DNA from: Centroscyllium fabricii
Taxonomy: Eukaryota
NCBI GenBank assembly: GCA_051313645.2
Contig: JBNRSN020000013.1
Coordinates: 50,592,001-50,656,000, forward strand
DNA length: 64,000 nucleotides
Direction of reading: 5' to 3'
A model generated the notes under the pieces. That model was not told the origin of the DNA. It searched no databases and was given only the letters and a program-made list of their open reading frames with translations. A program made the translations under genes and the position numbers. Within the stretch, counting starts at the first letter, position 1. Each line of letters begins with the position of its first letter. Shown one piece after another: positions 2,560-41,074 of this stretch.

Positions 2560-3825
2560 TTCCTGCCCCCTCCACCCTCACCTCCAACAACAAGTGCGAG
2601 GAGCTCATGTAGCTCTATGTCACGAAGATTGAGACCATCCATTCAGCTGCCTCTGCCGCTTCCCTCCCTTCCCCTAGCCCACTAAGCCATACTTCCTCTA
2701 AGGTTCCCTTGCCCTAGCCCAGAACTTGCATCTTTCTCTAGTTTCTCTCCTATCTCCCCTCATGCCCTCTCCGAGCTCAATTTTTCCATAAGACCCACCT
2801 CCTGCTCCCTCGAACCCATTCCCACCAAACTTCTGACCTCCCAAAATCCCTTACTGGCCCCATGTTAGCTGATATTATTAATGGTTCTCTCTCCTCAGGC
2901 ATTGTCTCCCTCCCCTTCAAGTCTGCCATCATCACCCCTCTCCTCAAAAAACACACCCTTGACTCCTCCATCCTTGCAAACTACTGCCCTGTCTCCAAAC
3001 TCCCTTTCCTCTACAAAGTCCTTGAATGTGTTGTCACTTCCCAAATCCATGCCCATCTTTCCTGCAACTCCATGTCTGATTCCCTCCAATCAAGTCTCTG
3101 CCCCTGCCAAAGCACTGAAATGGTTCTTAATAAAGTCATAAATGACATCCCATGTGACTGTGATCATGGTAAACTATCCCTCCTCAGCCTTCTCAACCTG
3201 TCTGCAGCTTTTGACATGATTGACCACACCATCCTCCTCCAATGCCTCTCCTCCATCATCCAGCTGGCTGGGACTGTCCTCACCTGGTTCCATTCTTATC
3301 TGTCCAGTCATAGCCAGAGAATCCCCTGCACCGGCTTCTCTTCCTGCTCCGGCACTTTTACCTCTAAATTCCCCAAGAATCTATCCTGGGCCCCCTCTTA
3401 TTCTTCATCTACATGGTGCCAGTCGACGATATCGTCCGAAAACACGTCAAGTTCCACATGTGCACTGATGATATCCAGCTCTACCCCACCACCACCTCTC
3501 TCGGCCCCTCCACTGCCCCTGTTTTGTCACGCTGCTTGTCCCACATCCAGCATTGAATAAGCAGAAATTTCCTCCAACTAAATATTTGGAAGACTGAAAC
3601 CAATTTGGTCCCCACCAAAAACGTCATTCCCTAAACCTCTCCATCTCTTTACCTCCCTCTCCTTTAAAATGCTCCTTAAAACTTGACTCTTTGACCAAGC
3701 TTTTGGTCACCTGTCCTAATGTCTCCTTATGTGGCTCGGTGTCAAATTGTGTTTGATAATCGCTCCTGTGAAGCACATTGGGACATTTTACAAACCTGGC
3801 GCTATATGAATGCAAGTTGTTGTTC
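2560..3825 (+). mobile_element. Degenerate L2-clade LINE (RT region plus 3' tail)
   Basis: ORF 2862-3560 has PLLKK..LD....NYCPVSKLPFL and LLNLSAAFDMIDH RT motifs; tail GGCGCTATATGAATGCAAGTTGTTG. Confidence 0.85.
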
Positions 3826-33975: not shown

Positions 33976-35010
33976 CACTCCATATACCATAAGGTACAAC
34001 CTGAAGTATAATATTTCTGTTGATCCTCCATTACATTCTCCACACCCACTAAATACTGGACTATAAATATAACCTTGTGCAACCTGCATCAGCATCTTAT
34101 TTCTAAAGCATCCAGGAACAAGTTATTTTGAAACAATATATGAATGTAACCAGATTCAAAATACCAGTAGGTGACTCACAGAGTAAGTGCATTGGTAAGT
34201 AAGTGAGCTTTCCAAATAATTGTTAAATACCTGCCTTTGTGTCTCAGATATGAATCTGAACAAACAGCTGATTTGTGGTATTTACCCAGATCGAGACCAA
34301 GAAATTCTGCATTGGAGACTGGAAATGTCTCATGTGCTGCTCTGCATTCTAAACTAGTTGATATGGCAGATGAACATGTACTTGGGATTTTCTTAGTTCT
34401 ACCGGTCATCAGATCAATTTCCCAGCCAACAAAGCACGCATAAGCTGTAATGGTGGAAGAGAAAGAGATTTACAATGCACTCCTACACCAAGATAATTTG
34501 GTTTATTCATCATCTTCAGGCTTTTGGAGGGAAGCTGGATTCATATCTGCAGCTGCAAGGGAGAACATTGTGGAGATTAATCAGCAGATTGAGTAGTTTA
34601 AGTCTTAAAAAATCATGCTAATGCTACATATATGGTTACTTCCATCAACCTGGTAGATCTAAGCATAATATATATCTTATTGGGTGGACCTGTATGTCTG
34701 TTACGCCCTTCAGAACCCAATACTTGGAAGAAGTCGCAACTAAATGGCATATTTGAGCTTGGCTTTAATTCATAGGTAGTCTACATGAAAATGTGAAACA
34801 ACTTTATTTTGCCTGTAACATATCCAGAAGTGGATGTATAGGTTGAGCACCATTAATCCGGCACCCTCTGGACCAGGCCGGTGCCGGATTACTGAAAATT
34901 CCGGACCACTGAAGGTTCGGGGGAGCGCGTGGTAGAACACGCCCCTGGTCCAGGAGCGCACGGTAGAACATTCCCCGGGAGGGAGCCCGGGGATAGAACA
35001 CTGTCCAGCA

Positions 35011-35095
35011 GTGGTGGCGTAGTGGTTATATCACTAGACTAGTAAGCCAGAGGCTCAGTCAAATGCTCTGAGGATATGGGTTCAAATCCCACCAC
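35011..35095 (+). promoter_or_regulatory. tRNA-derived internal Pol III promoter at the LINE 5' end
   Basis: A box TGGCGTAGTGG 35015-25; B box GGTTCAAATCC 35079-89; GTGGTG/CACCAC complementary ends; anticodon-like loop CTAGTAA. Confidence 0.8.
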
Positions 35096-35344
35096 GGCAG
35101 CTGGTGGAATTTAAATTCAATGCAATTTAATTCTGGAATTAAATGTTAGTCTTAGTGATGGCGACCATGATACCATTGTCGATTGTTGCAAAAACCCATC
35201 TGGTTCACTAATATCCTTTAGGGAAGGAAATCTGCCGTCCTTACCTGGTCTGGCCTACATGTGACTCCAGACCCACAGCAATGTGGTTGACTCTTAATGC
35301 CCTCTGAAATGGCCTAGCAAGCCACTCAGTTGTAAACAACCGCT

Positions 35345-38300
35345 ATGAAAAACAATAAGAATAAAACCGGACGGACCACCCGGCATCGACCTCGGCACCG
35401 GAAACGACAACGTCAACGGCAAACCCGGCCCTGTCGACCCTGCAAAGTCCTCCTCACAAACATCTGGGGACTTGTGCCAAAATTGGGAGAGCTGTCCCAC
35501 AGACTAGTCAAGCAACAGCCTGACATAGTCATACTCACAGAATTATACCTTACAGCCAATGTCCCAGACACCAGCATCACCATTCCTGGGTATGTCCTGT
35601 CCCACCGTCAGGACAGACCCACCAGAGGTGGTGGCACTGTGATATACAGTCGGGAGGGAGTAGCCCTGGGTGTCCTCAACATTGACTCAGGATCCCATGA
35701 GGTCTCATGGCATCAAGTCAAACATGGGCAAGAAAAAATCCTACTAATTACCACCTACCGCCCTCCCTCAGCTGATGAATCAGTACTCCTCCATGTTGAA
35801 CATCAATTGGAAGAAGCACTGAGAGTAGCAAGGGCACAAAATGTCCTCTGGGTGGGGGACTTCAATGTCCATCACCAAGAGTGGCTCGATAGCACCACAA
35901 CTGACCGAGCTGGCCGAGTCCTAAAGGACATAGCTGCCAGACTGGGTCTGCGACAGGTGGTGAGGGAACCAACAAGAGGGAAAAACCTACTTGATCTCGT
36001 CCTCACCAATCTACCTGTTGCAGATGCATCTGTCCATGACAGCATTGGTGGAAGTGACCACCGCACAGTCCTTGTGGAGACGAAGTCCCGTCTTCATGTT
36101 GAGGATACCCTCCACCGTGTTGTGTGGCACTACCACAGTGCTAAATGGGACAGATTTCGAACAGATCTGGCAACTCAAAACTGGGCATCCATGAGGCGCT
36201 GTGGGCCATCAGCAGCAGCAGAATTGTATTCAACCACAATCTGTGACCTCATGGCCTGGCATATCCCTCACTCTACCATTACCGTCAAGCCGGGAGATCA
36301 ACCCTGGTTTAATGAAGAGTGCAGGAGAGCATGCCGGGAACAGCACCAGGCATACCGAAAAATGAGGTGTCAACCTGGCGAGGCTACAACACAGGACTAC
36401 TTGCATGCCAAACAACAGAAGCAACATGCGATAGACAGAGCTAAGCGATCTCATAACCATCGGATCAAATCAAAGCTCTGCAGTCCTGCCACATCCAGTC
36501 GTGAGTGGTGTTGGACTATTAAACAGTTAACAGGAGGAGGAGGCTCCAAAAATATCCCCATCCTCAACGATGGTGGAGCCCAGCACGTGAGTGCAAAAGA
36601 TAAGGCTGAAGCATTTGCTACTATCTTCAGCCAGAAATGCCGAGTGGATGATCCATCTTGGCCTCCTCCTGAGGTCCCCAGCATCACAGATGCCAGACTT
36701 CAGCCCATCAATTCACTCCACGTGATGTTAAGAAACGGCTGAAGACACTGGATACTGCAAAGGCTATGGGCCCTGACAACATTCCGGCAATAGTACTGAA
36801 GACTTGTGCTCCAGAACTAGCTGCGCCCCTAGCCAAGCTGTTCCAGTACAGCTACAACACTGGCATCTACCCAGCAATGTGGAAAATTGCCCAAGTATGT
36901 CCTGTCTACAAAAAGCAGGACAAATCCAACCCGGCCAATTACCGTCCCATCAGTCTACTCTCAATCATCAGCAAAGTGATGGAAGGTGTCGTCGACAGTG
37001 CTATCAAGCGGCACTTACTCAGCAATAACCTGCTAACTGACGCCCAGTTTGGGTTCCGCCAGGGCCACTCAGCTCCTGACCTCATCACAGCCTTGGTCCA
37101 AACATGGACAAAAGAGCTGAACTCAAGAGGAGAGGTGAGAGTGACTGCCCTTGACATCAAGGCAGCATTTGATCGAGTGTGGCATCAAGGAGCCCTGGCA
37201 AAGCTGAAGTCAATGGGAATCAAGGGGAAAACTCTCCCTTGGTTGGAATCATACTTAGCACAAAGGAAGTTGGCTGTGGTTGTTGGAGGTCATTCATCTC
37301 AACCACAGGATATCACTGCAGGAGTTCCTCAGGGCAGTGTCCTAGGCCCAACCATCTTCAGCTGTTTCATCAATGACCTTCCCTCCATCATGTCAGAAGT
37401 GGGGATGTTTGCTGATGATTGCACACTGTTCAGCACCATTCGAGACTCGGCAGATACTGACGCAGTCCGTGTCCATATGCAGCAAGATCTGGACAACATT
37501 CAGACTTGGGCTGACAAGTGGCAAGTGACATTCGCACCACACAAGTGCCAGGCAATGACCATCTCCAACAAGCGAGACTCTAACCATCTCCCCTTGACAT
37601 TCAATGGCATTATCATCGCTGAATCCCCCACTATCAACATCCTGGGAGTTACCATTAAAGAACATAAGAACATAAGAAATAGGAGCAGGAGTAGGCCAAT
37701 CGGCCCCTCGAGCCTGCTCCGCCATTCAATAAGATCATGGCTGATCTGATCCCAACCTCAATTTTATTTTAACTCTCCACCCGACCCAAACACATGTGAT
37801 CACCCGGGAGAGGCGAAAAACCAGATAAAAAACCCAGTAGCCAATTTGGGAGAAAAAATCTGGGAAATTCCTCTCCGACCCATCTAGGCGATCGAAAACT
37901 GGTCCAGGAGATCACATGTCCGATCTGAACCTATCCTCACGTCCACTTGCCTGCCCGCTCACCATAACCCCCAATTCCCTTTTCTTCCAGGAAACTGTCT
38001 ATCTCTGTTTTAAAATTATTCAAAGTAGTAGCTTCCACAGCTCTCTGGGGCAGAGAATTCCACAGCCCCACCACCCTCTGGCTGAAGAAATTCCTCCTCA
38101 TCTCTGTCCTAAATGAGTCACCCCTTATCCTTAGACTATGACCCCTGGTTCTGGACTCTCCTACCATCGGGAACATTCTTCCTGCATCAAGTCTGTCCAG
38201 ACCAGTTAGAATTTTATACGTTTCGATGAGATCCCCTCTCAATCTTCTAAACTCCAGAGAGTACAAACCCAGTCTACCCAGTCTCTCCCCATACATCAAT

Positions 38301-39150
38301 TCTGCCATCCCAGGTATCAGCTTGGTGAATCTCCTCTGCACTCCCTCCATTGCTAGAACGTCCTTCCTTAGATAAGGACACCAAAACTGCACACAGTACT
38401 CAAGGCTTGGTCTCACCAAGGCCCTGTACAACTGCCGCAAGACCTCCCTATTCCTGTACTCAAAACCTCTCGCTATGAAGGCCAACATACCATTTGCCTT
38501 CTTAACCGCCTGCTGCACCTGCATGCTCACCCTTAGCGACCGGTGCACCAGGACACCCAGGTCTCATTGATCGGAAACTGAACTGGACCAGCCATATAAA
38601 TACTGTGGCTACAAGAGCAGGCCAGAGGCTGGGAATTCTGCGGCGAGTGTCTCACCTCCTGACTCCCCAAAGCCTTTCCACCATCTACAAGGCACAAGTC
38701 AGGAGTGTGATGGAATACTCTCCACTTGCCTGGATGAGTGCAGCTCCAACAACACTCAAGAAGCTCGACACCATTCAGGATAAAGCAGGCCGCTTGATTG
38801 GCACTCCATCCACCACCTTCAACATTAACTCCCTCCACCACCGGCGTACTGTGGCTGCAGTGTGTACCATCTACAAGATGCACTGCAGCAACTCGCCAAA
38901 GCTCCTTCAACAGCACCTTCCAAACCCGCGACCTCTACCACTTAGAAGGACAAGGGCAGCAGACGCATGGGAACAGCACCACCTACAAGCCACACACCAT
39001 CCTGACTTGGTCCTGTATCGCCGCTCCTTCACTGTCACTGGGCCAAAATCCTGGAACTCCCTTCCTAACAACATTGTGGGTGTACCTACACCATATGGAC
39101 TGCAGCGGTTCAAGAAGGTGGCTCACCACCATCTTCTCAAGGGCAATTAG
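35345..39150 (+). pseudogene. Disrupted LINE endonuclease-reverse transcriptase ORF (about 964 aa reconstructed)
   Basis: APE motifs DIVILTE, YRPP, GDFNVHH, LDLVLTN, SDH; RT motifs GPDNIP, NYRPISLL, QFGFR, LDIKAAFDRVWH, GVPQGSVLGP, FADD. One frameshift at about 36710 and a CR1 insertion at 37657-38564; the frame resumes at 38569. Confidence 0.92.
37657..38564 (-). mobile_element. 5'-truncated CR1/HER1 LINE inserted in the tRNA-headed LINE
   Basis: ORF 37937-38548 (QVQQAVKKANGMLAFIARG...RLRGDLIETYKI...WNSLP); (TTCTTATG)n tail; CATT at both junctions (37653-56, 38565-68). Confidence 0.93.
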
Positions 39151-39439
39151 GGATGGGCACTAAATGCAGGCCTAGCCAGCCAGCGACGCCCACATCCCAT
39201 CAATGAATAAAAAATTTAAAAAACGCCCGACCACCCTTCGTGCGAACCGGCGGCGCCGCTGAGCGGCTGCGCCACAAACTGAAGGCTACCGGTTCCGAAC
39301 CACTGAAGTTGCCGGACCATTGGGTGCCGGATTAATGGTGCTCAACCTGTATTGAAGTCTTTAAAAACACACGGGTGCACAACGTCTGTATAGACACAAA
39401 TATAAGCACTACTCCTGCTGGCAACTCCTCAGAGTGAGA

Positions 39440-40560
39440 GCAGAAATTTATTTATTGCAGAACTTTGATATCCACTACTTGGAACACAAGGAAATACTTA
39501 GGGGACCTCCTTCTTGATGGCAGAGACTGCCTGGCTGGCAGATGCTATCAAAGTAAGCTTGAGGTTTTGCAGTGTATCTTGTACATAGTACACACTGCAG
39601 CCAGTGTGCAAGTGGTGCAGTTAGGAAACGGAGTCCTGAAGCAGGGGCACTGAAAGTTGACTGTTCTGTCTAGGATGGTGTGGAGCTGAGTATTCCAGCA
39701 CACTCTTGACTTGAGGTTTGAAGATAGTGGAGAAGGTTTGAGAGGTTGCCACAGGCGAGTCACCGGTTATAGATTAATCTCTGGCCTGCTCTTGTAATTA
39801 TGTTATGGCTGGTCCAATTATGCTTCTGGTCAATGGTGACCTCTAGGATATTGACTTAGCAATAGTGGTTCCATTGGAGGTCAGTAGGAGATAGTTGGGC
39901 TTTTACTTGTTCAGGATGGTCATTGTCTGACAATCGTGGCATGAATGTTACATACCACTTGTCCACTTGTTAGCCCAAGCTTGAAACATAGAAGATAGGA
40001 GCAGGAGTAAGCCATTCGGCCCTTCGAGCCTGCTCCGCCATTCAATGAGATCATGGCTGATCATCCAAACTCAGTACCCTGTCCCTGCCTTGTCCCCATA
40101 TCCCTCGATCCCTATCGAGCCTGCACCAACACATATCCCACCATATCCCCGTAACCCCACATATTCAATCCCCCCAACACTAAGGGTCAATTTATCATGG
40201 CCAATCAACCTAACCCGCACATCTTTGGACTGTGGGAGGAAACCGGAGCACCCAGAGGAAACCCACGCAGACACGGGGAGAATGTGCAAACTCCACACAG
40301 ATAGTACCCGAGGCTGGATTTGAACCCGGGTCTCTAGTGCTGTAAGGCAACAGTGCTAACCACTATGCCACCGTGCCGCTTGGATGCTGTCCAAGTCCCG
40401 TTGGAGGTTGACATGGGCTACTTCATTATCAGAGGGACTGTGAAAAGTGAACACTGTAAAATCATTATTAAACAGCTCTACTTCTGACCTTAAGATGGAG
40501 GGAAGTTCATTGAGGAAAGAACTGAGGATGTCTGAATGAAAGATACTGCCCGTAGGAATT
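39440..40560 (-). mobile_element. Old, diverged relative of the same LINE family, inverted, interrupted by an HE1 SINE
   Basis: TLAAVCTMYKIHCKTSS matches TVAAVCTIYKMHCSNS of the 38605 ORF; nucleotide similarity to the RT region. Confidence 0.7.
39984..40377 (-). mobile_element. HE1-like V-SINE
   Basis: Reverse complement of the GGCACGGTGGCATAGTGGTTAGCACTG head, V-domain and CR1 tail; GCTTG at both ends. Confidence 0.9.
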
Positions 40561-41074
40561 CCCAGAGCACCACTGCCCTGTATTTGTTGAGAACTTGCAA
40601 TGGCTCAACTGAAACAATTTTTTTTCTTCCTCTTAAAGGCATCACCCATTTTTGAGCTACAGTTCCATAGGCACCAGTTACCCTCTAGTACCCAAGTGCC
40701 CTTTATTCATGTCCTGGTATCAGTGGATTGCTAAGCCACAGAATTCATCCCTGTTTTTACCTTCTGTAGGGCAGGGATGCTGAAGCACCACCAACTTGCT
40801 TCAACACAGACCAAGATCAAATCTGGGATTTTTCTGGTTTGTATGACACCATACCAGACCAGGAGAATTATTTACCAACTTGGCACTCTTTGTCCTTTTG
40901 ATCAGTTTTCTCCTGTTCCTCCGCCTCCTCTCCTGAAGACAGACTCATTGTTGGGGCAATGAAGAATCAAGGTTGACATTCCTGAAAATAGGATTTCTTT
41001 CCAGTAGAAAAACAATTGAGATCAGACCCGTTTACCAAATTTGGATGGAGATCATGGAGGATTCATGACCAAAA

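Follow-up and report, generated by a model that had tools for sequence, protein, structure and literature searches.

The window analysed in this study is a 64,000-nt stretch of the Centroscyllium fabricii genome (GenBank assembly GCA_051313645.2, contig JBNRSN020000013.1, positions 50,592,001 to 50,656,000 of the forward strand), and it contains one copy of a family of long interspersed nuclear elements (LINEs) that start with a tRNA-derived head of the kind found on short interspersed nuclear elements (SINEs). This LINE family with a SINE-type head is real, old, and abundant. The element is an APE-type non-long-terminal-repeat retrotransposon, with endonuclease and reverse transcriptase (RT) in one open reading frame (ORF), a common A-rich 3' end, and many 5'-truncated copies. 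The division between LINEs and SINEs rests on two rules, that LINEs are coding mRNAs made by RNA polymerase II (Pol II) and that SINEs are RNA polymerase III (Pol III) transcripts unable to code; this family would break both if it is an autonomous element driven by a Pol III promoter. We consider it fairly probable that the family is an autonomous single-ORF LINE whose full-length RNA would be made by Pol III and translated from a non-AUG codon, probably without a cap. The parts of the copy in the window are as follows.

35013..39222, forward strand: 3.3-kb single-ORF LINE copy with a tRNA-derived head, belonging to the young wave and split by a nested insert (family present at at least 40 places)
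35013..35105, forward strand: tRNA-derived head, lacking the first 8 nt of the family in this copy
35015..35025, forward strand: A box, TGGCGTAGTGG, fitting the consensus in 26 of 27 young copies and sharing 9 of 11 nt with the old majority sequence
35079..35089, forward strand: B box, GGTTCAAATCC, fitting the consensus in 24 of 27 young copies and sharing 10 of 11 nt with the old majority sequence
35205..35344, forward strand: conserved core of the 5' untranslated region (UTR), present in every short derivative too
35333..35335, forward strand: in-frame TAA bounding the ORF on its 5' side, in 27 of 27 young copies and in most old and ancient copies, a few having TAC
35345..35347, forward strand: likely non-AUG start codon; the family has ACG and this copy ATG (a CpG-type change)
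35336..37657, forward strand: 5' part of the ORF, with a basic N-terminal stretch, the APE endonuclease (about 35459-36061), and the RT (about 36916-37656)
38569..39150, forward strand: 3' part of the ORF, with a TAG stop at 39148-39150 and, in this copy, a 12-nt deletion near 38986
39151..39222, forward strand: 3' UTR and A-rich tail, common to the short derivatives and without a built-in run of four T (T4)

Both boxes lie in the window sequence where the original prediction, made from this DNA alone, had placed them. The element itself had been drawn from 35003; its actual start is at about 35013, and 35003-35011 belong to the miniature inverted-repeat transposable element (MITE) that received the insertion. 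The single endonuclease-RT ORF without ORF1 is a property of the family, which has a 972-codon frame, but not of the window copy, in which a 1-nt deletion near 36708 and the insert break the frame. The name "autonomous SINE" was also given up, because by the SINEBase size rule (<1 kb) and by its encoded protein the element is a LINE with a SINE head.

Family searches were made in the 7.2-Gb genome of the same species. With the head and ORF start as the query (40 of 2159 candidates scored), 39 places beyond the window matched at 97-98% across the head-ORF junction, which answers the proposed check of whether the two are joined throughout the family; two older waves have the same junction. The 5' ends of all 39 young copies fall within element nt 1-6; the common 3' end is reached by 34 of them, and 27, free of interruptions, differ by 1.4% from the column majority. 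The window copy is 97.9% (element nt 9-2656) and 96.9% (nt 2653-3308) identical to the intact copy L038. The 39 copies had been chosen by their head, and to avoid that choice additional copies were seeded from the tail and from the middle of the ORF. In the tail-seeded set, 3 of 29 other copies are full length and the remainder are shorter at the 5' side. Seven tail-seeded copies extend past the 1.5-kb flank; three of them start at nt 1, two at nt 139-140, and two inside the ORF, and none carries an alternative 5' sequence. Among 30 older copies seeded from the middle of the ORF, 6 extend to nt 8-24; 22 end beyond nt 100, and their upstream flanks have nothing in common, so neither an alternative 5' region nor an ORF1 came to light. 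A headless sister family was not found in this genome, where a search with a decayed fragment as the query gave back the same waves. Full-length copies begin 10 nt before the A box, which is where Pol III would be expected to start. Clear target-site duplications (13 nt and 23 nt) were found in 2 of 34 copies; the others are at chance level, and the window copy has none.

Several long copies end near one place, just after an AT-rich hairpin at nt 100-140: the young copies L351 and L356 end at nt 139-140, and the old copies L222, L228, L284, and L348 have near-identical 5' ends at nt 150-153. These recurrent ends may mark a second start, a site of processing, or a point at which the RT stops. 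Four near-identical rearranged pieces on small contigs (L251, L262, L263, and L264) are placed between the young and old waves and are possibly part of a larger repeated unit.

The old wave is about 85% identical from copy to copy and the ancient wave about 70%, and each of the three waves joins its own head to the ORF. The ancient wave is represented by five head-ORF copies, one with a damaged head: L330, the one of 20 loci from a search with the ancient short element that ran into the endonuclease, and L341-L344, which are 4 of the 10 loci of a follow-up search (the remaining six were young or old copies). The head of the old wave differs from that of the young wave (78% identity in nt 1-95 versus 92% in the ORF). 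Young and old heads are 20-22 nt longer than a tRNA, and the ancient heads, without this insert, have normal tRNA length. In the A-to-B spacer, 38 of 53 nt are common to the young and old majorities, while the boxes share the larger fractions listed above; the changes within the boxes lie at degenerate positions, and both versions still fit the consensus. Among 28 decayed old heads, the A box fits exactly in 15 and the B box in 16. One old-wave head aligned to the Rfam tRNA model RF00005 with 20 bits (E = 0.12), below the gathering threshold of 29; the alignment contains an insert of 22 nt, and the anticodon loop has AGU. The UTR core (nt 201-340) is identical between the young and old majorities at 137 of 140 nt, at a synonymous divergence of 0.225, and is matched at 71-87% in the ancient short elements; it is a candidate ribosome-loading or RT-binding element, or a candidate Pol II promoter. 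Rfam and folding z-scores gave no sign of a ribozyme or of a stably folded structure in the 5' region. Among metagenome relatives, a B-box pattern precedes the ORF at 2 of 67 loci; these relatives are distant (23-37%) and in many cases lack the 5' end.

The element is about 3.3 kb long, and 331 nt precede the ORF. In the window copy, Pfam matches were obtained for the endonuclease (E = 9e-15) and for RVT_1 (E = 6e-39), the families being PF14529, PF03372, and PF00078. The majority sequence has a single 972-codon frame, which is intact in 2 of the 27 uninterrupted copies (L034 and L038). Between the young and old majorities, synonymous divergence (dS) is 0.225 and nonsynonymous divergence (dN) is 0.043, with dN/dS of 0.19 overall and 0.13-0.22 in the endonuclease, linker, RT, and C terminus taken separately. 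The ORF is under purifying selection, as is expected of an autonomous element. Its phenylalanine content (2.0%) is lower than that of all 56 homologs. In the protein tree, the nearest proteins form a clade of mostly 930- to 1030-residue endonuclease-RT proteins with 30-40% identity, apart from the same-genome CR1. A protein of Heptranchias perlo matches at 74%, and an aldo-keto reductase gene model of that species (P0058) holds about 220 residues of the LINE protein, probably as a mis-called exon.

The frame has no AUG at its opening. Its first in-frame ATG in the family is at codon 286, and 26 of 27 copies have none earlier. Four codons past the bounding TAA, the 27 young copies have ACG (25 copies), ACA (1 copy), or ATG (1 copy); the ATG at 35345 is private to the window copy. 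ACG or ACA occupies the corresponding place in old copies and in four of the five ancient copies, and in three of those five the ACG site and the endonuclease lie in one frame, the stretch between them reading as Arg/Lys-rich but with stops due to decay. Because it is conserved across the waves at the opening of the ORF and no in-frame ATG occurs before codon 286, the ACG at 35345 is likely the start codon. For the nearest homologous proteins, the recorded start, as set by gene callers, is a Met a short way ahead of the endonuclease, unlike in the family described here. An ATG at element nt 305 was rejected as a general start, since it is followed by TAG in 23 of 27 and by TAA in 27 of 27 young copies and is GTG in ancient ones. 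Indels of 3 nt after the ACG were set aside as a sign of translation, because they lie in an AAT-like repeat and slippage may explain them. In the old copies L300, L306, L214, and L223, TAC replaces the in-frame TAA, and two of them, L300 and L306, have no stop in the frame between the ATG at nt 305 and the ACG; an AUG may therefore have served as the start in one old sublineage.

The sense strand of the family is depleted of T-runs. As originally claimed, the window copy has no run of four or more T (zero in 35007-37656 and 38569-39220), runs of at least four A are common in the two pieces (15 and 2), and the chance expectation of five to six T-runs agrees with a mononucleotide shuffle of these pieces (5.1 expected; probability of zero, 0.0055). 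The young and old majority sequences also have zero TTTT, as do 19 of 27 individual young copies; five copies share one T4, located at a TTTCG and compatible with decay of the CpG once the copies had inserted. For the young wave, zero T4 has a probability of 0.007 under a mononucleotide shuffle and of 0.02-0.04 with synonymous codons. Against synonymous-codon shuffles, TTT is reduced in the young (7 versus 15.1) and old (5 versus 11.2) majorities, and T4 together with weak-terminator motifs (interrupted T-runs) is reduced more strongly (2 versus 11.3 and 1 versus 7.6, respectively); runs of A, G, or C, pyrimidine tracts, and poly(A) signals are all at expectation. The shortest Pol III terminators are given as TTTT and TVTTT in the portion of PMC8466645 consulted. 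As controls, 67 related ORFs of at least 450 codons were taken from 80 metagenome loci; T4 occurs 1227 times in them against 1221 expected, and none of the 67 is without T4. The lowest ratios of observed to expected in these controls are 0.64 for TTT and 0.50 for terminator-like motifs, compared with 0.46 and 0.13-0.18 in the family. A CR1 from the same genome has seven T4 against 7.7 expected. The original contrast with the insert nested in the window copy was kept with a change of strand: T-runs do occur there, five in number, but on its noncoding strand, and since its coding strand has seven TTTT the contrast to the host LINE holds. The comparison with shuffled codons and related LINEs that had been proposed thus confirmed the depletion of T-runs, while zero TTTT taken alone is only marginally significant. 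The depletion is real, T-specific, and moderate. Avoidance of splice acceptors or poly(A) signals was discarded as its cause, as pyrimidine tracts and AWTAAA are not depleted. A terminal Pol III terminator belonging to the element was likewise discarded, T-blocks being found at 15 of 79 tails and at 38 of 306 background A/T stretches (P = 0.14).

Short elements with the same head accompany the LINE. Of 30 loci seeded from the head only, 3 continue into the ORF and the other 27 skip ahead to the tail. The short elements are mostly 460-490 nt long, at most 650 nt, and the ancient ones about 330 nt; they carry the 5' ~345 nt of the LINE plus its tail. Young junction classes (343/3169, 356/3198, 343/3189, and 354/3010) have ORF sequence on both sides, and young short elements have young diagnostic bases in both head (about 32:1) and tail, just as the short element L250 has old diagnostic bases in both. 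In a head tree of hand-picked example rows, long and short elements cluster by wave, not by length. The young classes and L250 are likely internally deleted derivatives of the contemporaneous LINE that arose several times independently. In the ancient short element the junction is at ~295/3237 and thus falls on the 5' side of the ORF start. These head-sharing derivatives and the absence of a family AUG start were both missed by the original prediction, and both fit its idea. The ancient ~330-nt SINE (L320-L339, L205:2590-2920, and L217) has a tRNA-length head and the same UTR core and tail, at 70-79% identity to the query copy, and may resemble AmnSINE2. In an exact motif search, the core motifs were not found in the supplements of PMC5786205 and PMC7245038 or in the searched files of PMC4824008. 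Four sequence runs from other organisms, presumed to be RNA, contain relatives over all 30 bins with head-tail joints at other positions; no listed piece from these runs spans the head-ORF junction, and contigs carry no information on polymerase, strand, or transcript ends.

These features suggest the following mechanism. TFIIIC would bind the A and B boxes, and Pol III would initiate some 10 nt ahead of the A box, read 3.3 kb that selection may have kept T4-free and almost free of weak terminators, and halt where the tail or flank offers the first T-run. Translation of this uncapped RNA would need no AUG; it would likely begin at the ACG at 35345, possibly aided by the UTR core. The endonuclease-RT protein would bind the 3' end of the RNA and insert it by target-primed reverse transcription. 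Internal deletion would leave head, core, and tail, that is, a ready-made SINE, and likely did so several times. The short elements share their first 345 nt with the LINE and are built like SINEs; should Pol III transcribe them, it would also start on the long element, where it would meet no T4. The existence of headless Zenon-type relatives suggests that an ancestor captured the head. The wider picture, of a vertebrate LINE lineage long run on Pol III, with a 3.3-kb transcript as its mRNA, a cap-independent ACG start, and the role of a SINE factory (because each internal deletion gives a new tRNA-SINE family), with an ancient derivative that may be the same element as AmnSINE2, a fossil SINE of amniote genomes, could as easily prove wrong as right.

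The sequences themselves show the anatomy, the head-ORF linkage across the family, selection on the ORF, the depletion of T-runs, the missing AUG, and short elements that match the waves; from them we infer the polymerase, the start codon, and the mode of translation. Several observations weigh against transcription and translation of this kind. ARAGORN called no tRNA in the window, and Rfam gave no tRNA match for the young head. The UTR core has no stable fold (z of -0.1 to -0.7), and the first 36 codons, which precede the endonuclease, show no purifying selection between the waves (dN/dS of 2.0 on 12 changes). Zero T4 has a probability of 0.08 in the intact copy against a dinucleotide shuffle (2.2 expected) and of 0.13 in the old majority, and the two waves share ancestry and are not independent. 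The TTT z-scores (-3.2 and -2.6) are at the edge of the 67 controls (minimum, -3.08), not beyond it; weak terminators are also lowered in the same-genome CR1 (21 versus 30; P = 0.018). In the family, TT itself is depleted (87 versus 106), which could have another cause. The young wave retains one weak terminator, TGTTT, and the 79 tails show no terminator built into the 3' end of the element.

One alternative, which we consider improbable, is a division of labor in which Pol III makes the RNA that is copied and the protein is translated from capped RNAs that Pol II transcribes from the same copies or from sister copies, by read-through from host promoters or from an internal Pol II start. This would explain the head and the T-run pattern equally well and would agree with the established knowledge that Pol III RNAs are normally untranslated; the copies ending at nt 139-153 could mark the second start. 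However, a capped RNA would have 10 ATGs ahead of the frame and lack an in-frame one, so unusual initiation would still be needed, and the ends at nt 139-153 follow the AT-rich hairpin and may be RT stops. The purifying selection on the ORF is most simply understood if the copied RNA is the translated RNA.

That the element is an ordinary Pol II LINE whose internal promoter lies in the UTR core is unlikely to a similar degree. The head would be a passenger that was acquired a single time and retained through linkage or through exchange with SINEs, and the T-poverty would result from LINE strand bias or some other constraint. The UTR core is the most conserved part of the element, as an internal promoter might be, and the T4 statistics are marginal; moreover, PMC5786205 treats LINEs, together with the bipartite elements derived from them, as Pol II products. 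A passenger head should nevertheless decay evenly, whereas the boxes keep their consensus over three waves in which the spacer changed and gained 20-22 nt. The T-specificity of the depletion, which spares pyrimidine tracts, the start of full-length copies 10 nt before the A box, and the lack of an AUG also argue against this explanation. Chance adjacency of a SINE and a 5'-truncated LINE in the window copy only, which the abundance of SINE-sized elements with this head (27 of 30 head-seeded loci) might suggest, is ruled out almost completely by the identical junction in 39 other copies and two older waves and by the ORF sequence on both sides of the junction in young and old short elements.

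From its size, the LINE is a candidate member of the Zenon group; the protein tree contains unnamed homologs only. Zenon (CR1-Zenon) is likewise a CR1-group LINE of about 3.3 kb with one ORF and an A tail, and it gave rise to short elements, the Persaeus SIDE, by internal deletion several times independently, as is likely here (PMC6740152 and PMC4016481); the table rows seen give Zenon lengths of 3,315-3,534 bp (PMC6740152). Unlike the short elements described here, Persaeus is reported there without tRNA homology or a Pol III promoter. CR1-Zenon-like LINEs are also listed for the whale shark (10.1101/443036). The tRNA-derived SINEs (SINE2; SacSINE1, CmiSINEs, and the HE1 V-SINE) have the same A/B-box head, a conserved body, a LINE-type tail, and no internal T4 (PMC3531059, PMC5499810, and PMC4824008); the LINE described here differs in its length of 3.3 kb and in its own enzymes under selection. 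The limits of the SINE2 definition on size and autonomy (<1 kb, non-autonomous; PMC3531059) are respected by the short derivatives but not by the full element. The definition further asks for at least 60% identity to a tRNA over 60 nt, a comparison for which the family has so far given the 20-bit RF00005 match of an old head, and for A and B boxes close to the 5' end, which are present here. In the described shark SINE/LINE pairs, only the 3' tail is common with L2-2_CM (PMC5499810), whereas head, body, and tail are shared here, as compared by description.

SINEs formed from bipartite RTE or Vingi LINEs likewise have bodies derived from the 5' UTR and 3' end of a LINE, but their head was added after the deletion, to a noncoding bipartite element (PMC5786205 and PMC7245038); here the head is already on a coding LINE, and deletion alone therefore yields a SINE. 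That SINEs cannot encode protein is stated in PMC5786205. R2 and L1Tc are likewise single-ORF LINEs, whose uncapped RNA is thought to be translated by means of a 5' structure resembling an internal ribosome entry site, R2 thus providing a precedent for translation of uncapped LINE RNA (PMC6765202). R2 differs in being a Pol I cotranscript cut by a hepatitis delta virus-like ribozyme; here, Rfam gave no ribozyme match and the candidate polymerase is Pol III. Literature searches, which did not extend to Repbase, Dfam, subscription papers, and some supplements, found no description of a LINE with a SINE head of this arrangement; a match to a Frith preprint concerned only "non-protein-coding SINEs."

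If the Pol III reading is true, the family offers a natural long translated Pol III transcript in a vertebrate and a testable route for cap- and AUG-independent initiation, and confirmation of the polymerase would make it a new kind of element. The naturally intact copies make this question directly testable. Even with Pol II involved, the birth of SINEs by deletion of a head-bearing LINE would reverse the published order (deletion first and head later). The conserved body of a SINE is here tied to the 5' UTR of a living LINE, which bears on the origin of such bodies.

The surroundings of the LINE copy and its interruption consist of the following features.

34837..35011, forward strand: left part of the MITE that received the LINE insertion (MITE family at 91-94%)
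37658..38564, reverse strand: nested antisense 3' fragment of a young CR1-type LINE with a 4-nt duplication, CATT, foreign to the family
39220..39351, forward strand: right part of the MITE, following the left part in 3 of 5 MITE copies compared

The terminal inverted repeats of the MITE (34837-34874 and 39314-39351) are 89% identical. Uninterrupted MITE copies run from the left piece into the right piece, in agreement with the claim that head and ORF sit within one split MITE; the LINE insertion was accompanied by a loss of about 6 nt, without target-site duplication. The nested insert, which we presume to be CR1, has its own family at 99% identity. It is missing at this site in all of the copies that reach it (36 of the 39), in which the two pieces of the LINE are contiguous or nearly so, and the same young CR1-type family has inserted at a different site in another copy of the LINE (L039:2798-3533). 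Next to the MITE, at window positions 39568-40562 on the minus strand, are decayed pieces (67-84%) of an older LINE related to this one. A further tRNA-headed repeat, possibly an HE1-type V-SINE, lies at about 40170-40380 on the same strand.

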